Part shown: positions 3,526 through 15,411 of the stretch, one piece after another
How positions within the stretch are numbered: position 1 is the stretch's first letter
Layout: each line of letters opens with the position of its first letter
NCBI GenBank assembly: GCA_965205015.1
Contig: OZ242029.1
Coordinates: forward strand, 2,336,001-2,400,000
Length of the DNA: 64,000 nt
Reading direction: 5' to 3'
Source: Candidatus Poribacteria bacterium
GTDB lineage: Bacteria > Poribacteria > WGA-4E > WGA-3G
Notes under the pieces: generated by a model
Seen by the model: the letters and a program-made list of their open reading frames with translations, nothing else
The model's database searches: none
What the model was told of the DNA's origin: nothing
Program-made: the position numbers and the translations under genes

Positions 3526-4093
3526 ATTTATTTGTTTTTTGCGTCCAATTGGCTGTATTAATGCCCTAATCCCATCCGATATTTGATGTCGTAGTTGATG
3601 ATGAAGTCCAATTCCTCGTCGGTGAAGCCGTAGTGTTTAGCGAGCACGCGGTCGATGTCGTCTATAATGTCTTTACTCAAACGTGGGTAGAACTCTTGAT
3701 AGATAATCTGTCCTGTCCGGGACGAGGTTTGTTCCTTCAGTTGACTGTTTTCTCTGTAATCGACCATCAACTTTTTACATAAAGATTCTAATTCATTGGC
3801 ATGGGTTGCTGATAATTGCGTTAAATTTATTGGAAACTCGTAAAGGACACTTGGAGCCAAATCACGACAGTTTGTCGTAAGTATGTAATACCAATAAAAT
3901 AAGGAACTACTCAAGATCGAGATTCCGATGTTTCTCGCTCTTTCTTCTTGAAAATATAGATGGTTTTCTTTACTCGACATAGATTCCTTGCCGTTTAAAA
4001 CGAACCGGGGTTGGAAGTTCGTGAATATTTTCCAGTATCGTCCGCCACTCGTTCGATAATAAATAGGAGATGAAGACCGCTTTAATAAATGAG

Positions 4094-5448
4094 CTGATAT
4101 TTCTCAAAAGTTGTCCTAAAGCAATAGTTATCAAGGTTCTTTAGGATTAAGTTTATGAAAATGCGTCATGAAATCCATGAGCGTCTGTCTTTCTCCGGTG
4201 AGTTGAAGCTGTATTTGATGAAATGTGCGTCGCTCTGAGATGCTAACTTGAAGCAACATCAGGTAGCTCATGGCTTTTATGCCAAGACTCACATACGCAC
4301 CTTCTCTGCTTTCCAAACTCATCGCGGAGATGTGCAAACTCGATTTCAAATACCGCCAATACTGTTCAATACCATGGTGTTGCGACCAAATCCTCAGTGC
4401 CTCGCAGGTGCGTAGCGGTTTACCAAAGATTAAGAGGGTGCGTATCTTTTTCCGATCCACAAAGAAGATGACGACACACTCGCCAAAAGTTGGGCTTTCC
4501 GCTTTGAGACGACAGACGGGTTTATCACACCCCCATTGATCTTCACGCAACTCTATGTGCTTTTTATGAGCCGAAAGTTTCGCAGTTGTATCGCCTATGG
4601 TCATGACATAGTTGTTTTTTCCGTGAACGAGTATGCAAGCAAACCCTAACTCCGATAAGGCCTCAACGAGTTTACGACTGCCATACCACGAATCGAAGGT
4701 AATCGGATACTTTCTTAGATCAACGCCTTGGGTATCAAAGAAATCTAAGACATCTTTGAGCATCGCTATCGCAAGACTCGGTTTATCTGTATTGCCACGT
4801 CCTTGTTTACTGACAAGACGCGTCTGTAATGGAATCACGCGATCGCCAACTTTTAGTGTGATCCCTAAGACGTTCTGACACCAGATAGAGGTCTTGTGTT
4901 TTTTCGACCACCACTTTGAACAATAAGAGAGCGTCTCTCCGTAGCGAGGTAGATTCGTATCATCAACACTGACGGTAATCCGCCGCCGCGATTGCGTTGA
5001 AGCACTCTTGCTTTCGGCGTCTTTGATGAAATCGACTGCCATCGCACACCCGAGTCGTAGATTCAAAGACTTCGAGTGATAGAAACTCAGAGAACCGAGG
5101 TGCCGATAAAGACCGGCTTTCGGAAGTTCCAAGGCATCGGCAACTTGATTCGGGTTGTAAAGTCCAAAGAGATGACAAACGCAGAGCAGCAGCAGTGTCT
5201 CAACGACTTGACGCTTCATACACTGAAAGGAAGAACAAAGAAGGTCTTGAAAAAAGAGGGTGGATTTGATAAGATGATCACGCATGCGATGGCCTCCTAA
5301 TGACTCAAAGGTGGTTCTCTGAATCCTTAGGATGCCATTTCATGTGCTAAAAATCAAGCACCCTTTTCAAAACCATCGCATTTTCACCTTGCTATACCTG
5401 CTTTCTCTTTGTTATTACTGCCTTCATGATAACTGTGATAAATATCAG
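4094..5448 (-). mobile_element. IS4-superfamily (IS701/ISH3-like) insertion sequence
   Basis: Terminal IRs ctgatatttctcaaaagtt and ctgatatttatcacagtt (reverse complement). 5-bp TSD ATGAG at 4089-4093 and 5449-5453. Confidence 0.85.
4131..5285 (-). CDS. DDE transposase (IS701/ISH3-like)
   Basis: VSVDDT, ITFDSWYGS and WSQHHGIEQYWRYLK catalytic regions, 384 aa, located between the IRs. Confidence 0.85.
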   Translation of the reverse strand: MRDHLIKSTLFFQDLLCSSFQCMKRQVVETLLLLCVCHLFGLYNPNQVADALELPKAGLYRHLGSLSFYHSKSLNLRLGCAMAVDFIKDAESKSASTQSRRRITVSVDDTNLPRYGETLSYCSKWWSKKHKTSIWCQNVLGITLKVGDRVIPLQTRLVSKQGRGNTDKPSLAIAMLKDVLDFFDTQGVDLRKYPITFDSWYGSRKLVEALSELGFACILVHGKNNYVMTIGDTTAKLSAHKKHIELREDQWGCDKPVCRLKAESPTFGECVVIFFVDRKKIRTLLIFGKPLRTCEALRIWSQHHGIEQYWRYLKSSLHISAMSLESREGAYVSLGIKAMSYLMLLQVSISERRTFHQIQLQLTGERQTLMDFMTHFHKLNPKEP

Positions 5449-5508: not shown

Positions 5509-6848
5509 CAGGGTCATTCAATTTTAAGATTCCTCATTTTATGAGGTTAACTGCGAGTATAGGTTTTGCTGCGAGATATTGGAGAGCATCAGTGATTTTT
5601 GTATGTCCGGTGAATCGTAAAACAGAAAGTGCCGTGTTTCGCATGGCTGCCATGACTTGAGGGATCACGCCGGTTCGGACGCATGAGGCATCCTCTCGAA
5701 AGACGGTATCTCGGACCCAATGAAGTTTATTCTCAATCGTCCAATGCTCACGTCGGAGTTTGAGCAAATCCGCTGCCGAGGCACGTTGAGGTGTCAGACT
5801 CGTGATGCCATACTGCACGTGGCACTTGACCTTTTTGGTGTTTTTCTGTTCCTGGTGTGTGATGTATTGATAAACTTGCTGTAGCCCTGGCCAGTCGGAA
5901 TCCTCTCTCAAGAGGGTGCTTGCGGTGAGGGTGCGAGTGGTAATCCTACCTTTTGCGTCTTCTGTGTCTGTATACGTCTGAAGTGTTGCCTCGTTTTCTA
6001 CGTGAAGGTTTTCAAACCGGCGATGCTCGACTTCAGGGGGGTCAGTTTCATCAAAGGGTTCAAAGAGGTCTCGAATATCTTCATATAACTGCTTCTGATT
6101 CGCTTTGACGGGGAGACAATAATCTGCGTGATTTTCAAGAATCTGTTGACAGAACTTACGTTGGCTGAGAAGGGCATCGGTGGTAATCACCAGACCTGCG
6201 ACATCAAAGGCTTTCAGGAGTTCGATGGAAAGTGGGATTTCATTGGTCTTTTCACCCACCGCAGCTTCTGCCACAGGGATGCCTACCTCATGAAAGACGG
6301 CTGCGAGGAGATGTGTCCTGCGGGCATCTTCGCTATGACTGTTGCCTAAGGTTTTGCCATCTATGGCAAGTCCCTTCAAGCCAGACGTGGAAATGGGCAA
6401 ACTGGCTAAAGTCTGTGTTGTCCACTGCGTGAGCGTCTTTTCTACAGCCGTGATGTCCAGACGTTGATAAAGATAATGAAACGTCGATGCTGCCGGGGTT
6501 TGTTTGGCTCTGAACCCCAAGGCGTTTGGCAGGTCTGGGTGGAGGCGTGCCCATTTGGCAATCTGTGTATAGCTGCGTTGTCCACACAAGAGTCCGACAA
6601 CCGTGAGGGCGAGCATCGCGGCTAAGGGGTGGCGGCGTCCTTTTTTCTTGCGTGGATCTGGCACTTTTGCTAACATATCAAGTAAGTGGCAAGAGGAACG
6701 TCTTGTCATGATTCACCTCAAAAACGTGGTAATTTTTAGGGTGAAGTATAGCAGAAGTCGCGTGAAAAGTCACGCGACTTCTGCTTATCTGAAAATATTA
6801 ACACCTGTGAAAAATATGACACCAAAAACCTACAATTGAATGGCCCTG
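5509..6848 (-). mobile_element. ISAs1-family insertion sequence (copy 1)
   Basis: IRs cagggtcattcaatt and cagggccattcaatt (reverse complement). 10-bp TSD CCTCGGTATT at 5499-5508 and 6849-6858. Confidence 0.92.
5534..6709 (-). CDS. ISAs1 family transposase
   Basis: VPDPR..GRRHPL, AIDGKTL, KTNEIP, TTDAL, VKANQ and REHWTIENKLHWVRDTVFRED motifs. Confidence 0.95.
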   Translation of the reverse strand: MTRRSSCHLLDMLAKVPDPRKKKGRRHPLAAMLALTVVGLLCGQRSYTQIAKWARLHPDLPNALGFRAKQTPAASTFHYLYQRLDITAVEKTLTQWTTQTLASLPISTSGLKGLAIDGKTLGNSHSEDARRTHLLAAVFHEVGIPVAEAAVGEKTNEIPLSIELLKAFDVAGLVITTDALLSQRKFCQQILENHADYCLPVKANQKQLYEDIRDLFEPFDETDPPEVEHRRFENLHVENEATLQTYTDTEDAKGRITTRTLTASTLLREDSDWPGLQQVYQYITHQEQKNTKKVKCHVQYGITSLTPQRASAADLLKLRREHWTIENKLHWVRDTVFREDASCVRTGVIPQVMAAMRNTALSVLRFTGHTKITDALQYLAAKPILAVNLIK

Positions 6849-7448
6849 CCTCGGTATTGGAGCAAAGTTTTGGAATAACATGTGGTTTGACTTTCTCCAC
6901 TGCAAAATGGTAAGTAATGCGATGAAAAAGATGAAATCTTTCATCGCTAGTCCACTTCATAAATTCAGTTGTAGCAAGAGCACATTCGCCCTTTCTCCCG
7001 GCTCTGCTTAGTAAAATTGTCAATAGAACATCAGCCCCAGCGAAGAGTTTGCTAGGTCTTTCAGCGAAATTACTTAGCCAAACTAATTTTGATGATCGAA
7101 TAAGTATTTTCTGCATCGTTTCCATTCTCTGAGTACCGACAAGACTTATGGGGACAATAAAGCCAAAACCTCCAGAATTATTCAAAAGCCTCAAACTTCT
7201 TTCACTCGCAAACGCGTAGAGGTTACCACAATCTTCTGTCTCATAATTTTTCACGGCGTAGTCTTTCCTAACCTTTCTATATTCCACATACGGCGGGTTA
7301 CCAATAATCACATCAAAGCCACCGTCCTTCAGAATCCCGTAGAACGCAATGAACCAGTGGAACGGCTTATGTGAAGAAAGCCATGCCTGATAAGCGGGAT
7401 TGGTATCCGCCGAGTCGAGATTTACTTTTTGCTTATCGTTTGTAAAGT

Positions 7449-7459
7449 GGGGGGGGGGG
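7449..7459 (-). repeat. C11 homopolymer (G11 on +) inside the methyltransferase
   Basis: tgtaaagt-G11-ccgc. C9 or C12 would be in frame; C11 is not. Confidence 0.9.
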
Positions 7460-9623
7460 CCGCATTGTATTCGCCAGCAAGGTATTCGTTGAGTTCGTTT
7501 TCTAACGCCCTGAGTTTATCCTGTAAAACTTGTTTGTCTGCTGGGCGCACATCGCCTCCCAATTCCGTCTGCTGCTCCCGAAACAGGAAAGACAACCGCT
7601 CAACATCTTCAACCTTTTCTTCAATGCGCTTCATGGTATCGTCGAAGTCAAATTTACCGGTGACTGCTTCCTTCACCTCATCGTAGGAGGTATAACCGAC
7701 GAGGGTATTTCCTGCCTGAATGTTAAAGTCGATGTCTGGTAGTGGCTCGATCCGTCTCACGTCCTCAAGTTGCGCTACCATTTTTAAGAAAAGGCGCAGT
7801 TTGCAAATCTCAATTGCCTCCTCCATGATGTCTACGCCGTAGAGGTTGTTGATAATGATGGATTTGAGGATGAAGTAACGGTGATTTGGGTGCTGCTTAA
7901 TGTCCTCAAGGATATTGCGGAAGTCGTTATATTTACGAGAGGAGCGTGATTCAGAAATCATTTCTATCTCGTCTAAGAAGACTTGCATCCGATCAAGACA
8001 TGCCTCATAGAGCGGTTCGAGGATATTCAGTGCGGCAAATAGGAATGCCCCGGAACCACAAGTGGGGTCGAGTATTGTCACCTGCGTGATGGATTTCCAG
8101 AAGGCGCGGAGGAGTTCGGGACTTTCACAATTTTCAATAACATCCTGCGCGAATTGACGGATGTTAAGGTTGTAGGTGATTAGATCGTTGATGTCGCGGA
8201 CCTCTCCATTTGCGAGTTTGGCTCGAACGGTCTTGTAACGTTGCCGCCGTGCGACAACCTCTCGCCAGATCTCGGTTGGCAAGGCGTATTCATCGGACGC
8301 GAGTGTGTTCCAGCAATCGTTACGTTTGGAGACATCGTCGATTCCAGCAGCGATTTCCTCTGGCAAATCTAATTTGACCCCTTTTTTTACGGCATCGTAG
8401 ATGTAACGGTCAGGATCTTCTTGTAGGGGTTTCCAGACAGACGGGTTGCCTTCAAACTCGGTTTTGCATGCCTTTCGCGCCTTGTCAAAGAGGCATGGGA
8501 TGATGGTATTTTTGCTGATATAGTCCGTGATGTCTTCTTTGGTGTAGTAGGCACCCATCTGCTTCTGGTTGATGTATTTCTCAAAGATGTAACCGAGGAC
8601 ATCAGGGTTAATCTCGTTATCGTTCCGTAGCGGACGATCGTCGAGATGCCACTGGTATTGCTCAAAGAACTTGAAAAGTTGTTCAAATGCTTTGTCAGGA
8701 ATCTCAATGTTTTCACCGTGGAGTGTTTCAAGGTGGTGTTTCTGAAAGATGCCCCCGTTGAGATAGGGGATTTTACCGAGCAGACGTTTCACCTCTCTGC
8801 TCCGTTCGTTTTCCGGTTTCGCGAATCCGTCAAAGAAAAGCGGACAGAGGAATCCTTTGTAATATCGGTCAGTGTTCTGTGTCAACTTGTTGCGCAGATA
8901 GTTTGGATCGTCATCAAGGAAGCCTTTCTTCTGGATGAAGTAGATGAACATCAAGCGATTAAGCATGACGGAGGCGTACCAGCGTTGCATTTCTTCATCG
9001 GGAATGCCGTTGAGGAATTTGAGGAATGCAGTATGCTCTCTTTTGAAATGGTCATAGAATTTTTTGGTAACCCTTTCAATGTCAAAACTTACCCGAACAC
9101 GGCTCGTTACATCGAACAGTGTAAGTTGCCCTTCCTCCTCAAAACTAAAGGCAATGGCTTCAAGTTTTTGGATCAGCAAGTCACCGGGTTGTGTTGTATG
9201 ATACCGATGTTCACGACACGCTGTGGGTTTTCCGTGCTCTCGCCTTACCCACTGCCAGATGTGTGTGTTTTTTGGGGCATCAGTGTAAATGATAAAGTGC
9301 TCGTAAAAAGATTTTGCAACTTCCTTTTGAATCTTGCGGCGAGTCGTGTAATCTGGGATGTGGTCATCAGATGTAGTTGGTGAACACTCAAAGACGACCA
9401 TCCCGCGTTTTTCAGCAATGGCCGTGAGTCGATAGTCGGTTTCGTCTACTGTGATATTGAGTGGTTGGGTGCGATGATAATCCCAACCGAGTTCTTCAAT
9501 AAAGAGGGTTTCAAATTCGGATTCTTTGAGATATTGGCGTGTTTCTCGAAGGTTCAGCATTTATGTTTTCCTGTGAATTCGTGTGGTTTCAAAGCCTAAC
9601 GATCCAATTTGAGTAGATCATGG

Positions 9624-9905
9624 TTAATAGATATCACCACGATTATCAATTTGAACAATGCGAATTACCCGTCTGTCTCTATCAACTCGGTAAACGAAAC
9701 GAATATCCCCGATGCGATAGCGATAACGTTCTTTTGTTCTGCCGCGCAATCGCCTGATTGTCATAGGGTTTTCGTGATGAAAAGGAGAGTGGGTGATATA
9801 TTCAAAAGCGGCATTAATTCGTTCCCGTGTTTTTTGATCTCGCCGCTTAATAAAATTTTCAACCTTTCTTGGAAGAGGCTCAAGCGTGAAGGGCTGGTGA
9901 TTCAC
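9624..9905 (-). CDS. RelE/ParE family toxin
   Basis: 93 aa and basic; IRRLRG...YRYRIGDIRFVYRVD...VQIDNRGDIY. Overlaps the upstream gene by ATGA-type coupling. Confidence 0.85.
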   Translation of the reverse strand: MNHQPFTLEPLPRKVENFIKRRDQKTRERINAAFEYITHSPFHHENPMTIRRLRGRTKERYRYRIGDIRFVYRVDRDRRVIRIVQIDNRGDIY

Positions 9906-10231
9906 AGCCCAATCTCCTTCTTAATCTGAGACCACGGTTTTCCGCCGCCAGCATCTAATTCCTGTTCTGCCTCAGCAATATCTGCCAGGACCTCTGGTTC
10001 TGAATTGATGAGTGCTGTTTCGCGCCAATCCGCAAGAAAAACCGAAAACGTTTCGCGATATTTTTTTTCTTCTGAGGTGTGTGTTAGCAGTTCAAGCAAT
10101 TCCTCGAAAAACTCAACAAGTTCCTCGGGATCCAACCATTTAAGCCACTCAAGGGACTTTGAAATCGGAACAGATTTGACGAACAATTGATCATTCATGA
10201 GGTGTCCAACGACAAGTTTGGGCTTTTTCAT
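9902..10231 (-). CDS. Putative antitoxin
   Basis: 109-aa acidic protein directly upstream of relE. C-term LADIAEAEQELDAGGGKPWSQIKKEIGL is a typical RelB/Phd-like toxin-binding tail. Confidence 0.75.
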   Translation of the reverse strand: MKKPKLVVGHLMNDQLFVKSVPISKSLEWLKWLDPEELVEFFEELLELLTHTSEEKKYRETFSVFLADWRETALINSEPEVLADIAEAEQELDAGGGKPWSQIKKEIGL

Positions 10232-10269
10232 CTGAGGTCTCCATGTGTGTCAGTGTTAGGTTTAGGCAG

Positions 10270-10298
10270 ATTATACACGATGTATTGATGGGATTCAA
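10270..10298 (-). promoter_or_regulatory. sigma70 promoter of the TA operon
   Basis: TTGAAT-17 nt-TATAAT on minus strand; homologous to 14518-14546. Confidence 0.7.
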
Positions 10299-10398
10299 GT
10301 ATCTTTTTAGGTAAACTAAGGTTTTGGATCTAAGAGTCCGGGGCGGTTAGGTGAAAGACCCTACCGGTTCTGGGACGAGTCTATCTTTTTTCGTAGAT

Positions 10399-13300
10399 TT
10401 ATGCGTTACTTGTACGAAGTCCTAACGAACAAACAATCTGCGGTTCTCGCGTTTGCCGCTCTTCCTCAATAATGCAAAGCCGATCCGTTTCCCATAAATC
10501 AATTACCAATTCTGCAAGAGCTTCGTTGGAAATACTGCTGCGGAGTTGACGGTTGAGAGTATCAGTTGCTGTCTGCCGCAGCGGATACCGGTAAATAGCT
10601 TCAATGACCTGTTTAAGTTGAGGCGTGTTAAGTAGCGTTCCTTCGACCTCTGAGGCGTAATCCTTCAGGCGTTCATAAGTGCGGAACCGTGCCCCTGATG
10701 GGCGTCCGAGTTGTCCGCCACTCGTCCGTTCTTCAGAGACAATCAACTTTGCGGCTTCTTCCACAAGGCGGTGATGTTCTTCGAGCGGTGAGAGTGCCTC
10801 AGTCTTCGGTTGGCACGCTGCAGCTTGGAGAATCGCAAACTGGGATTCGGTTACGCTTTGACCGTCTTGATCTATCCATGCCAGCGCGTCGTTTTCCTGT
10901 CCCGTTCGGATGTAGACCAGCGCGCCTTCGGGTTCGTTATCGGTTAGCGTATGCGGTTGGGTTGAATAGACGACAGAGGAGAGTGCAGGAACAATTTTTT
11001 CTAAATTCGGATCTTGCGTAATGGCGTTTTTCCAAATCTGGTAGGCATGAGAGGCGAGGTCAACATCGTTATCCCGTTCATCGTCAAGCAAGCCTGCCTC
11101 CTCATTATAGAGATTAACAATCGTCTGATTGCCTTCCTCACCGTCGTCTTCAAAAAAGGCTTCGTCCGTGCCGACAACCTCTGCGTTCTGGCGAAGGCGC
11201 GCACGGACGCGTCCGCGTAAGTTAATGATGCGCTCCACGCCTTCGGCGGGTAGGAACGAATAGCACAAAATGTCTTCTGACATCTGACCAATCCGGTCAA
11301 CCCGACCTGCACGCTGCACCAAGCGTATGATTGCCCATGGCAGATCGTAGTTGACAACAATTGAACAGTCCTGCAAATTTTGTCCCTCACTCAGGACATC
11401 TGTACTAATGAGCACCCGCAATTCGTCTGCCCGATTAATTCTATCCCGTTTATTGTTGCTGATAGGACTAAAGCGATGTGCTAAGGCGGTGGGATCTGCC
11501 GAATCGCCAGTCGCTGGAGCGATTTGTGTCATCCCGCGTTCTGAGAGGACATCTGTGAGATACTGCACTGTATCCGCGAATTGTGTGAAGACTAAGACCT
11601 TATCGTCCGGATGTGTCTGGATTAGCAGTTCTTGAAGGGCATTGAGTTTTGCGTCTTGTTCGGGGTTCCATGTGCCGTATTGCTGCAGGATCTCAGTGAG
11701 TGCGAGCGCGTCACCAGTAAGGTCTTTCCGTAGCACGGACAAAAAGAGATTTGGACGCAGCCACTTAAACCTGCTTTTATACTTTGTCCTGTAGAGTCGA
11801 TAGATAGCAGCGGCGCGTTGTTTGTAGCCGTCGTCCGTGTATTGCCGAGATTGTGAGTCGGTATTATCAATCTGTGTGTCATCTTCATCACCAGAAGCAT
11901 CTAAGATAACGGTGGCGTCCTCGGTATCTCTGTCTTCAAACCGAGAATCGAGCATCTCGGCGTTCTGGGATCCGATCGGCAGCGGTTCATCGTTTTCAAG
12001 GGCGTGAAGGAAGATATAATTCCGTAGGATATGCCGATCAACGGATTGAATGAACGCTTGTCCACTGCTTTCGAGTCGTTTGAAAAGATTCGTTCGGCAA
12101 AATCCCATCAATCGTTGTCCCCCACGGGAGAGGTCTTCTAACTGCTGCTGCTCTGTTTCCGTCGGTGGCTCCGATGGTGCGTCAACAATGTAGTTTGCAA
12201 GTCCATACCGAGCCAACTTGAGACTGCTAATCACGTTCACAACAGAAGCAGAGTATAGTTGTGCGTAGGTATCGTCTGGATTTTGATCGTCAATTTCAAA
12301 CTGTATTGTTTTTGGCACGCGCGTAGGAAAGTAGGATCGCGTGCCGTCAGGAAAGGAGAGGAATTTCCGCTGTGTCTCAGGATCCGTGTCGGCGTAATTT
12401 TCCGTGATGAAACTTCGCGTGCGACGCACAAGATACCGGCGCATCAACTCACGCCAGTCGTCAATATACTCACTGTGTTCAAACGCTGAAAGCGTCCGGA
12501 CTCCGCTTTGGTGTTTACGGATAAACTCGGTTTCACTGCCTAACTTCTTGATGTATTGCTCTGGTCGAATGCCGAGATCCTCGGTTTCATCAACAAAAAG
12601 GCGGAGTTGATTAGAGAGATCGAGATAGGTTTTGTTATAGGGGGTCGCGGAGAGGAGGATGACCTTGCTCTCGTTTTGTTGGATATAGTCCTGAATGGCG
12701 CGGTAACGTTTGCCTTCACGGTTTCTGAGATTATGGCTTTCATCAATCATGACGAGGCGATAGCGTCGGAGATCGGGCAATTCGTTAAGCACTCGGCTAA
12801 TTGAGAGCACCCTTCCCCGTAGGCGATATTCCTCTCGATAGTCTTCCCACATATTAACGAGATTCTTCGGACAGATAATCAGTGTTTCAAGGTCGTAATC
12901 GTCTTCCTGTATGCGCGCCAGTGCCGTCCCCATGAGCGTTTTGCCGAGTCCGACGACATCCCCTATGAGCACACCCCCGCGTCTGTTGAGATGATGCGCT
13001 GCGATTTTCACGGCAGCCGTTTGGAATTCAAAGAGTTTGTCCTCAAATTCGCGTGGAATCTGAAATTCAGTCAACCCAGCGCGTGCTTCCTGTGAGAGGT
13101 GATACGCCATTTTGATATAAATGTGATATGGGGGGATGCGTTCCTCACGCGCCCAACTCTGCTCGATAATTTCAATCAATTCCTTAGAAATGTCGATGCA
13201 CCATCTGTCATTCCACCGGTCTTCAAACCAATCCTCTAACTTATCACAAGAATCTGAGTCAACAACATCAATGTTGAGTTCTGCCTGATGTGACAGCCCA

Positions 13301-13797
13301 GAAAGCGTCAAATTGCTACTGCCGAGGTAACCCACAGTCGGCGCGACGAGGTCAGAACGATAGATTAAATAGAGTTTCGCATGGAGCGTATGTCGCAGAA
13401 AGAGTTTTACCTTTACTTTCTCGTCACGAAGTTGTTGTGCCAACTGACGCAATCCTATTTCATCCGCACGCGTCGGCACACCGACAGTCAGTTGTTCTCG
13501 AAATTCCTCTGCCAATCTCCGTTTCAAACGGAGTGCGGTTTGGTTGTCGATTCTGCCGTCCTGCTTCGCGAGTCTCTTGGCATGCCGGAGTTCTTCATTT
13601 GGCAAGCGTTGCATGCCGACAAGTAAGCGGCAGCATTCGTCTGCACCGCCATCCCAATTCTCAACGTAAGATGCGAGTCCTCTCCAGCCACGAAGATTGA
13701 AATAGCCGACACAAAAGTCGGCATGTGTAGCGGTTTCAAGTGTCTGTTGGAGTGCAGGAAGTAGCGGTTGGTCGATATTATCGAAGATACGGGGCAT
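10399..13797 (-). CDS. PLD (HKD-type) nuclease fused to SNF2-family helicase
   Basis: LHAKLY...GSSNLT (PLD); [32 protein letters not shown] and [11 protein letters not shown] (SF2/SNF2); 1132 aa. Confidence 0.9.
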
Positions 13798-14478
13798 TTA
13801 GAATGATGTCTCCTCGTCGTCCTCGTCATCCATATCCATTCCGAGGTAAAGTCCCATGGGAGCGAGACCTGCTTTGACTTTTTGGAGTGATCCCATCCCG
13901 AAATGATTGATCTGTAGTAGTTCTGATTCCGTTTTTTCGACGAGTGCTCGTAAGGTATAGATGTTTTCCCTTTCGAGGCAATTGTGGGCTCGGGTCGGGA
14001 GTCTGAGTGCAGTGATAGAGAGAGTTAAGTAATCATCCCGCTCCTGTTCCGTCACATCAGCGATCTCCGGTTCCCTGTAGATGTTAGGGAACAGTGGGTC
14101 CCGTTCATCTTGGACATCGATAATATTTACCCAAGGTGAATCCAACTCCTGTTCTGCCTCAGTCATATCTGACAAGACATCGCTTTCTGGATGGAGCAAA
14201 ACTCTTTGGAGCAAAGGAGGGAGAGATTCCCAAATCCTCGCGTAATCCTCCGATTCTAATGCGGTTTCACGCCAATGGTCCAGAAAGGTCCGAAGCGTCT
14301 CGCTATCTTCCTTTCCCTCTGAAATCTGTGCTATCAATTCAAATAATCCCTCAAAAAACGGAACAAGTTCTTCGACCACTAACGAGCTGATCCAATTGAG
14401 GGGTTTTGAAATCTTAACAGATTTCACGAGCATTTCGTCTTCAATAAGGTATCCAACGACAAGTTTAGCCTTTTTCAT
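13798..14478 (-). CDS. Antitoxin-like domain fused to an RNA polymerase alpha-subunit C-terminal domain
   Basis: N-terminal ~115 aa align with 9902..10231. C-term LRLPTRAHNCLERENIYTLRALVEKTESELLQINHFGMGSLQKVKAGLAPMGLYLGM matches the RpoA CTD pattern. Its TAA abuts the helicase ATG. Confidence 0.85.
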   Translation of the reverse strand: MKKAKLVVGYLIEDEMLVKSVKISKPLNWISSLVVEELVPFFEGLFELIAQISEGKEDSETLRTFLDHWRETALESEDYARIWESLPPLLQRVLLHPESDVLSDMTEAEQELDSPWVNIIDVQDERDPLFPNIYREPEIADVTEQERDDYLTLSITALRLPTRAHNCLERENIYTLRALVEKTESELLQINHFGMGSLQKVKAGLAPMGLYLGMDMDDEDDEETSF

Positions 14479-14517
14479 TTGAAACCTCTGTGTAGCAAGA
14501 GTGTTAAATTTATGCCA

Positions 14518-14546
14518 ATTATACAGGACGTATTGATAGTGTTCAA
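14518..14546 (-). promoter_or_regulatory. sigma70 promoter for the alphaCTD-fusion/helicase operon
   Basis: TTGAAC-17 nt-TATAAT; the spacer shares ATCAATAC with the promoter at 10270-10298. Confidence 0.7.
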
Positions 14547-14763
14547 GGTTTTTCGGAGGTCGGAATTACAACTGAACAAATTTTGGAGATTTCGACAAGG
14601 TTTTTCAGAAGAATTGGTTTGACACAATTTTGACTTTCAATTAAACTATCTCCACAAATTGCAGTTCTTGCGTTCGATTTTTCATGGAAGCGGCGGATTT
14701 CGTGCCGTTCCCAAATTGTGCTCTTAAGGCACAATGTGTTTTTCCTTTACAGTGGAGGCTCTC

Positions 14764-15411
14764 ATGTCGAAAATTCTCGTGTTATCAGGTGAAAACCACG
14801 GTTTCAGTGCAAGTGCCAGCATCATTCACGACTTTCTCTCCGAAGATGCTAATATTTCAGCGACGCTAACTGACGATAAAGCGATTTTAGCATCCGAGGC
14901 GTTGAATACCTACGATGTGTGTGTCTTTGGCACCGGCTTCACACGTACAGAACGCCAAGAGGACGGCTCCGTCGCTCGTGTCTCTGATTTAGCATCCGCT
15001 GAAGAAGAAGGTTTGTTCCAATTTGTCAATAGCGGCAAAGGGTTGGTCGGCATTCACGGGACCGCGTGGTGGATCGGCGGTCAAGCAATGGATCTCATCG
15101 GTGGTGCTTCCAATTGGCATCCGCCCGGCTCGACCTTTACCGTCCATATTGAGGATAGTGAACATCCGACAACCCAAGGCGTTGAAGATTTTGATGTGGA
15201 GGATGAAATTTATATCTCCGCGCATGATCCCCATATTCACGTGCTGGCATCTGCTGAGTGGTTCGGCAAGTCACACCCGATGGCTTGGGTGAAACCTTAC
15301 GGTTCTGGACGCGTCTTTTATACCACGTTAGGACACGGACCCGGAACTTTCGAGCGTGCCGGAATGCAGAAATTCCTCACCCAAGGCGTGAAATGGGCAG
15401 CGGCATCGTAG
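14764..15411 (+). CDS. ThuA-like domain protein
   Basis: GKGLVGIH, HPP, DEIY and GRVFYTTLGH motifs. ATG 14764 after GGAGG. Confidence 0.85.
   Translation: MSKILVLSGENHGFSASASIIHDFLSEDANISATLTDDKAILASEALNTYDVCVFGTGFTRTERQEDGSVARVSDLASAEEEGLFQFVNSGKGLVGIHGTAWWIGGQAMDLIGGASNWHPPGSTFTVHIEDSEHPTTQGVEDFDVEDEIYISAHDPHIHVLASAEWFGKSHPMAWVKPYGSGRVFYTTLGHGPGTFERAGMQKFLTQGVKWAAAS

Follow-up and report, generated by a model that had tools for sequence, protein, structure and literature searches.

The C-terminal domain of the RNA polymerase alpha subunit (alpha-CTD) binds UP elements beside the -35 region of promoters; R265 (E. coli numbering) is its minor-groove arginine and, together with N268, G296, K298 and S299, makes up the 265 determinant for DNA contact. 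Phages target this domain, and the T4 proteins Alt and ModA ADP-ribosylate R265. Controller (C) proteins of restriction-modification systems, in turn, are Xre-type helix-turn-helix (HTH) dimers with defined C-boxes. A further relevant precedent is the integrated decoy of plant NLRs, together with a decoy model put forward for the bacterial NLR-like sensor bNACHT11 (PMC11702601), in which a host domain targeted by pathogens is built into an immunity locus. Here, we analyze a fusion gene (13798..14478, minus strand) in a 64,000-nucleotide (nt) stretch of a Candidatus Poribacteria genome (GCA_965205015.1, contig OZ242029.1, positions 2,336,001 to 2,400,000), referred to throughout as the window. 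The gene encodes a protein of 226 amino acids (aa) with an antitoxin-like N-terminal half, followed by a linker, an alpha-CTD and an acidic tail that all derive from RpoA. Our favored, if tentative, reading is that it constitutes a portable, self-promoted regulator cassette for the defence genes downstream.

The gene is like those of C proteins in that it is small, has its own promoter (14546..14518, minus strand), and lies directly upstream of, and co-oriented with, a restriction-type gene (junction TAAATG) with which it would be co-transcribed; the autoregulation that we propose for it is a further likeness. Unlike C proteins, it has an unrelated fold without an Xre-type HTH: Pfam detected no HTH in the fusion, and the model of its N-terminal module, a beta-hairpin with helices, had no match in the PDB. 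It is an analogue in logic, not a family member. Relative to RpoA alpha-CTDs (PF03118; solved in 1LB2, 3K4G, 3N4M, and 9ZUM) it shares the profile, the (HhH)2-type fold and residues R265, N268, C269, G296, and S299, and with Poribacteria RpoA also the EPEP linker piece before the alpha-CTD and the acidic tail. It differs from RpoA in having no N-terminal domain, in changes to the basic residues at 297/298 and to the acidic 258-261 patch, and in being just 48% identical to the host domain. With the RelE-linked antitoxin encoded in the window at 9902..10231 it shares 46% identity, a homologous promoter and leader cassette, and the same island slot, but it has an insertion of 20 aa or longer and about 105 extra residues, is not followed by a toxin gene, and is present in some genomes in which window-type RelE was not found. 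Neither fusions of an alpha-CTD with an antitoxin, nor DUF6247, nor a role of RNA_pol_A_CTD in defence came up in our literature searches, while supplements could hold mentions; PF03118 was found as a marker gene only, and for toxin-antitoxin (TA) and restriction-modification systems in Poribacteria we recovered general sponge-symbiont genomics only. The paralogy to the RelE antitoxin, the exchange of slots with TA genes, the origin in the 3' end of rpoA, and the shared promoter cassette are new.

The fusion protein is strongly acidic (isoelectric point [pI] 4.3, net charge -27). Its first part, the N-module (residues 1-76; 14251..14478, minus strand), is common to RelE-linked antitoxins and consists of a basic beta-hairpin followed by two long helices, with a pI of 9.6 for residues 1-30 (the hairpin part) versus 4.8 for residues 1-76 together. 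K5, V8, G9, L11, W29, and F41 are invariant in the N-modules of the fusion family. When the fusion (residues 1-119) was aligned by BLASTP with the antitoxin at 9902..10231 (minus strand; residues 1-103 of 109), 57/123 positions were identical (46%; E 2e-19), and the sole gap was an insertion of 20 residues in the fusion. The paralogy of the N-terminal half, proposed in a prior sequence-only reading of this locus, was thus upheld. That reading also considered the antitoxin's C-terminal tail to have been replaced, which is not the case: 103 of the 109 antitoxin residues are retained, and the alpha-CTD is appended behind them. The antitoxin's last residues (KKEIGL, with an invariant G108) are missing from the fusion.

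The retained antitoxin homology extends into a linker motif (residues 100-120, DVLSDMTEAEQELDSPWVNII; 14119..14181, minus strand) that is homologous to the C-terminal helix region of the antitoxin. Within this motif (EAEQELDSPW), E111, L112, D113, P115, I117, and I119 are kept in at least 90% of 64 aligned family members, and the surrounding linker was modelled by AlphaFold2 at a confidence (pLDDT) of about 32. A conserved motif in a poorly modelled linker is typical of motifs that fold on a partner, and suggests a protein partner here. A fusion copy in another locus (L001, 10001..10795, plus strand) has its linker module tandemly duplicated (YARIW.S..P.LQRVLLH.E.DVRADITE.EQEL occurring twice), which shows that the linker grows by repeats. 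Behind the linker are the alpha-CTD (residues 144-212, with R163 corresponding to E. coli R265; 13843..14049, minus strand), supported by Pfam, AlphaFold2, and Foldseek, and a C-terminal acidic tail (13801..13842, minus strand; net charge -8). The tail had been taken for a separate addition; its homologue is the acidic end of Poribacteria RpoA, and it was inherited from the C-terminus of the host protein. Linker and tail together have a net charge of -21.

The presence of a complete alpha-CTD, also noted in the sequence-only reading, was borne out by both profile and fold. Pfam RNA_pol_A_CTD (PF03118) matched fusion residues 145-205 (E 8e-17; 61.2 bits vs a cut-off of 23.8). AlphaFold2, run with a 64-row alignment, modelled residues 144-208 at pLDDT 80-94, and Foldseek placed the modelled domain on solved alpha-CTD chains (8y5t, 3n4m, 1lb2) with target TM-scores of 0.85-0.96 and root-mean-square deviations of 0.7-1.1 Å. 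Matches of the NCBIfam rpoA models to the fusion were confined to the last 70-85 positions of those models and far below their cut-offs, and the alpha N-terminal dimerisation/assembly domain was not found in the fusion with these models. Because it is without this assembly domain, the fusion cannot be a polymerase subunit; the true rpoA sits elsewhere in related genomes (L080-L082).

Residue correspondence was taken from the alignment to chain 10ma_G (query 134-217 to chain 237-319), in which the E. coli number equals the query residue plus 102. By this alignment the fusion keeps R163 (R265), N166 (N268), C167 (C269), G194 (G296), and S197 (S299), while residues 156-159 read TALR at E. coli 258-261, and H192, M195, and G196 stand at N294, K297, and K298. 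The earlier list of residues (R265, N268, C269, G296, and S299 kept; TALR at 258-261; N294 and K298 lost) was therefore right. The host Poribacteria RpoA itself reads R297/T298. R163 and G194 are invariant in 64/64 aligned members, and A164 and C167 are conserved in at least 90%. The alpha-CTD of the window copy is near neutral (pI 6.1), versus a pI of 8.9 for the host domain.

We next traced the origin of the C-terminal half. The linker of the Poribacteria alpha subunit ends in YVEPEPEIDE and its C-terminus is acidic, as seen in rpoA from three related genomes, and both features recur in the fusion family. One family member (P0027) aligned to residues 266-361 of host RpoA at 60% identity over 96 aa (E 7e-32), and the window fusion aligned to host RpoA at 41% identity over 127 aa (E 1e-21). 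In a 66-column tree of 57 fusion alpha-CTDs, two Poribacteria RpoA, and 25 RpoA from other phyla, the last being a biased sample of those that happened to come up in the locus search, the branch separating other-phyla RpoA from Poribacteria RpoA and all fusions had support of 100/97. On the basis of these RpoA alignments and this branch, the whole C-terminal half (linker end, alpha-CTD, and acidic tail) is a duplicated 3' end of the lineage's own rpoA. The duplication is old. Identity between the fusion domains and that of the host is 48-67% (48% for the window, with a branch length of 0.7), and recent copying from rpoA was rejected on these identities. Massive amplification of alpha-CTDs in Poribacteria genomes was likewise rejected, with two, four, and six matches in three genomes, rpoA counted.

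Alpha-CTD-like sequences were also seen in other contexts. A long Poribacteria open reading frame (ORF) (L089, G002:C1:693187-696354, minus strand) has three tandem alpha-CTD-like repeats, followed by a stretch resembling sigma-70 region 4, and a stand-alone open frame of about 110 aa (L088, G003:C3:1109288-1112440, minus strand) comprises an alpha-CTD with an acidic tail and little else. The scan of viral contigs yielded no full-length fusion and two alpha-CTD-only matches. The first, on an IMG/VR viral contig (L101, 7668..8225, plus strand), is a 185-aa protein with an unrelated N-terminal part and a well-conserved alpha-CTD (ELELSVRSVNCL...), and about 750 nt downstream of its gene is a 72-aa ORF ending in an SSB-like DDEIPF tail. 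The second (L102) has a similar alpha-CTD match.

The fusion was represented by 89 clusters in the protein index (E <= 1e-3), nearly all 223-272 aa in length, and the few named members were from Candidatus Poribacteria; it is a conserved Poribacteria family. PF26169 is assigned to some of the homologs but was not among the families of the Pfam version that we searched. Full-length fusions were located in ten loci from the genome collection, two metagenome loci (L092 and L093, probably one organism) and the window, giving 16 genes in 13 loci. All 13 loci have a defence-island context. In 12 of them, the fusion is held in an island composed of an SNF2+PLD helicase-nuclease (PADLOC 'HKD+Snf2', E 1.8e-55) and a type IIG-like methyltransferase of about 1100 aa (PDLC03628, E 3e-242), which is usually found beside ThuA-like and enolase-family genes. 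Homologs are linked to defence and TA genes, and the sequence-only reading is not refuted on this point. In the window, the SNF2 helicase with its N-terminal PLD/HKD nuclease domain (1132 aa; 10399..13797, minus strand) is intact, and its ATG abuts the TAA of the fusion (TAAATG).

Within the island, the fusion is always co-oriented with a large gene and on its 5' side, in one of two slots. Eight loci have a fusion in the slot before the helicase, at 0-4 nt from those helicases that are intact; in L001 this slot is empty, and in L004 a fusion was not detected there. Five loci have a fusion between helicase and methyltransferase, and in four of these the methyltransferase is 56-87 nt downstream (none was detected in L003). 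In other loci, this second slot contains an antitoxin with RelE (five loci, including the window), an antitoxin alone (L011, L012, L013), or nothing (L007). The lone antitoxins are 108-124 nt from the methyltransferase, with no space for a toxin, and because they fill the slot in these three loci, members of the N-module family serve without a toxin before the methyltransferase. The pre-helicase copy of the window is closer to the pre-methyltransferase copies of L001-L004 (64-80% identity) than to other pre-helicase copies (43-48%). The cassette type does not follow the slot, and the cassette is not tied to one partner.

The fusions of L008 and L038 precede other defence-type genes. In both (L008 10854..14168 and L038 12053..13902), the fusion is followed by an NsnB-like AAA ATPase (E 2.4e-54) and an overlapping, weakly PIN-like gene of 177 aa; an SLFN-AlbA_2/HATPase_c_4 gene is also found after the fusion in L008 but not in L038. 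By sequence, these genes look like a separate candidate defence module.

The two best promoter-like sites on the minus strand of 9400..14800 are those preceding the fusion and the antitoxin. The first (TTGAAC-17-TATAAT, 10 of 12; 14518..14546, minus strand) has an A-tract just upstream, in the position beside the -35 where an alpha-CTD binds UP elements, and belongs to a cassette that is common to fusions and antitoxins. The second (10270..10298, minus strand) also scores 10 of 12. We examined 30 cassettes, drawn from fusions in either slot, antitoxins of the island, and free TA pairs. In 25 of them the upstream region has AAAA.CTTGAA-17-(T)GTATAAT with a related leader, and two further cassettes have a GTATATAAT variant. 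Promoter subtype goes with protein subtype. Short palindromes, read by eye, lie over the -10 in some cassettes (e.g., ATACATCATGTAT).

Pairwise ratios of nonsynonymous to synonymous substitution (dN/dS; 10 pairs) ranged over 0.14-0.51 in the N-module, 0.23-0.67 in the alpha-CTD, and 0.34-1.24 in the linker, all rough estimates based on about 70 codons each. By these estimates both domains are under purifying selection.

On our favored reading, the cassette combines a small protein with a near-consensus promoter of the sigma-70 type. In the manner of type II antitoxins, the N-module would form dimers that bind an operator within the cassette's own promoter, while the tethered alpha-CTD would bind the A/T-rich minor groove by the -35 or touch RNA polymerase there. 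This would determine how strongly, or when, the cassette and the gene that follows are transcribed, the latter being the translationally coupled SNF2-PLD helicase-nuclease in the window. Such control would follow the logic of the C protein of a restriction-modification system.

The N-module occurs with more than one kind of C-terminal part. The antitoxin of the window (109 aa; 9902..10231, minus strand), with its own promoter-like site at 10270..10298, has as its sole family likeness a weak match to DUF6247 (E 0.0015; its Atlas neighbours likewise), and is modelled (pLDDT 77) with five helices behind a beta-hairpin that spans residues 5-22. With a pI of 9.6-9.8 the hairpin part is basic, and the rest is acidic. 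A profile search with the N-module (E <= 1e-3, 1.84 billion representatives) recovered 72 proteins, mostly DUF6247-like and 100-120 aa long. The longer matches had one alpha-CTD (P0044, P0080, P0093), two alpha-CTDs (P0099), or a HicB-type toxin-binding domain (P0110). In P0110 (177 aa), a HicB-like antitoxin domain (Pfam E 2.2e-10) is joined to N-module residues 1-80, which occupy the place at which HicB proteins carry their DNA-binding domain. From these comparisons, the first ~75 residues behave as a constant module with exchangeable heads.

The antitoxin's stop is overlapped by the gene for a RelE/ParE-family toxin (93 aa; 9624..9905, minus strand; Pfam ParE_toxin E 9.3e-6). This pair recurs in about 20 Poribacteria loci away from the island and in five inside it, and it is because the overlapping pair recurs across loci that we regard the 9902..10231 product as an antitoxin. 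None of the three proteins (fusion, antitoxin, and RelE) is covered by a PADLOC model. The sequence-only reading had proposed that the alpha-CTD is a bait whose binding or modification triggers RelE, and this misfits the distribution of the toxin. RelE was present within 10 kb on either side in 4/13 fusion loci (the window, L006, L038, and L092) and was not found in 8/12 evaluable ones, L093 ending too early to judge. Whole-genome searches of five fusion-bearing genomes with the window RelE as query (E <= 1e-5) did not find it in two (G002, G006), while G003 and G005 had only relatives of 29-37% identity and G004 a frameshifted copy. No cognate toxin gene was found directly downstream of the window fusion, where the helicase-PLD gene lies instead. 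A complex prediction of RelE with fusion residues 1-125 scored 0.00, a result obtained without controls that carries no weight either way. Triggering of RelE is unlikely to be the general role of the fusion.

The alternative raised in the same reading, that the fusion regulates transcription of the locus, accounts for the anatomy better than a RelE bait, because the fusion has its own promoter, is always in a 5', co-oriented position, interchanges with antitoxins, and has kept R265 in 64/64 members. We also count in its favor that the antitoxin with which the fusion interchanges stands alone before the methyltransferase in three loci, and that the N-module of P0110 sits at the DNA-binding place of HicB. 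This part of the earlier reading is the better supported one, with the regulatory effect itself being inferred.

Several points weigh against a regulator. Foldseek found no significant match of the antitoxin model in the PDB (best E 0.54), and no solved DNA-binding antitoxin resembles the N-module. The N-module as a whole is acidic, as is the entire protein, and the window alpha-CTD, near neutral and without basic residues at E. coli 297/298, would be weakened in DNA binding. Binding by the N-module at an operator and by the alpha-CTD is likewise inferred in our analysis. Most of the loci occupy one chromosomal site (ThuA/enolase) and are relatives, not independent observations, and the conservation of the promoter may merely reflect the common descent of the cassettes. 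The antitoxin-type motif of the linker suggests a protein partner that lies outside the regulator model. Moreover, a copied polymerase domain is hardly something that a regulator requires, and this model leaves the choice of the alpha-CTD unaccounted for.

That choice would be explained if the fusion were an integrated decoy, in which the alpha-CTD taken from rpoA imitates the tail of the host polymerase. A phage factor that binds or ADP-ribosylates alpha-CTD would then strike the decoy as well, and a neighbouring effector (the helicase-nuclease, or in other loci other defence genes) would be released or activated. The descent of the C-terminal half, with linker and acidic tail, from Poribacteria rpoA (100/97 in the tree) is in keeping with this, as are the invariance of R265 (64/64), the residue that T4 modifies, the defence islands in 13/13 loci, and the partner-binding-like motif retained from the antitoxin. 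However, the trigger is a hypothetical phage factor, none being known, and a domain with 48-67% identity to a nearly invariant host counterpart (48% and a branch of 0.7 in the window) would be a poor mimic of most of its surface. The fusion is also dispensable for the island, its pre-helicase copy being missing in L001 and L004 and its pre-methyltransferase copy in L007, and the crude dN/dS estimates gave no positive selection. None of our computations pointed to bait behaviour. The precedent is the decoy model for bNACHT11 (PMC11702601), and the likeness to it and to plant NLRs lies in a pathogen-targeted host domain within an immunity locus; here, by contrast, the alpha-CTD copy is on a separate, small, antitoxin-like protein, not on a receptor, sensor ATPase, or effector. 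Taken together, we consider a decoy unlikely. A more elaborate form, which we find a little harder still to credit, is a 'guard' built from the host polymerase, where a hit on the bait would change the action of the scaffold at its promoter or partner and thereby activate the defence genes nearby, the helicase-nuclease or others; the scaffold family would then have three heads, namely a RelE-binding helix, a HicB-type domain, and the alpha-CTD.

The conserved linker motif leads to a different possibility, on which the fusion is, much like an antitoxin, a partner or inhibitor at the protein level that holds the helicase-PLD nuclease (or the methyltransferase) inactive, or tethers the enzyme to promoter DNA or RNA polymerase, through the linker motif and tail. 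The TA-like gene order and TAAATG junction, with the same coupling in L006, L007, L092, and L093, are consistent with this, as are the conservation of EAEQELDSPW in a low-confidence linker and the strong acidity of linker and tail (net -21). Nevertheless, intact 1132-aa helicases occur without an upstream fusion (L001, L004), one subtype precedes helicase or methyltransferase alike, and other copies precede unrelated defence genes. A specific partner should vary along with the cassette type, which is not what we see. This account, too, we judge to be unlikely.

Less probable again is that the fusion competes with the polymerase, as a dimer whose two free alpha-CTDs compete for UP elements or activators and reshape host or phage transcription widely. 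The build is similar to that of the alpha subunit, with a putative dimer module, a flexible linker, and a CTD, and alpha-CTD fusions exist on a viral contig (L101) and in other Poribacteria proteins (L088, L089). Against this, the tight linkage to defence genes and the dedicated promoter cassette point to a local role, and the determinants for sigma and activator contact are not conserved, with position 261 being E, G, Q, or R in the family. Finally, a working RelE antitoxin, neutralising RelE 9624..9905 or RelE copies elsewhere with the alpha-CTD as an added DNA-binding domain, is very improbable: the homology does span 103/109 antitoxin residues, including the C-terminal helix region, and a RelE gene is present in the window, but that RelE already has its own overlapping antitoxin, the KKEIGL end with its invariant G108 is lost from the fusion, and RelE was not found in 8/12 evaluable fusion loci or in G002 and G006, and is distant (29-37%) or frameshifted in G003, G004, and G005.

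The island around the window fusion is itself partly broken. The type IIG-like methyltransferase (PADLOC PDLC03628; 3558..9560, minus strand) is in three pieces (7422..9560, 6736..7311, and 3558..3980), with two genes for DDE transposases (5534..6709 and 4131..5285) interrupting it ahead of the final piece, 3558..3980, and a further break between 7422 and 7311. In the window it is a pseudogene; the same gene is a single 1096-aa ORF in L006, and in L002, L003, L009, and L038 it is the helicase that has been lost instead. The island is often decaying. In a sponge-metagenome DNA contig (run X4), the 3' part of a fusion gene is joined to the start of the methyltransferase with 89 other letters between them, skipping the helicase and TA pair. 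Strain-level variants of the island coexist in nature. Metatranscriptome contigs (runs X22, X23) matching 9400..14800 represent parts of a relative's helicase and stop at 13804 with unlike sequence, leaving the fusion gene uncovered; coming from runs that possibly include DNA, they indicate neither expression nor silence of that gene.

If the regulator reading is true, the fusion would represent a new way to build a transcription factor, by placing a duplicated linker and alpha-CTD on an antitoxin module, and it would give a function to an antitoxin family without a solved fold. If instead the decoy reading is true, bacteria would here offer a clear example of an integrated decoy that copies core host machinery. 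On either reading, the family provides a simple three-part test bed, made up of the 226-aa protein, a single promoter fragment, and the nuclease downstream. For the sponge-associated Poribacteria, an uncultured phylum, a regulator of this kind would be a movable, on-board controller of restriction-like defence genes.

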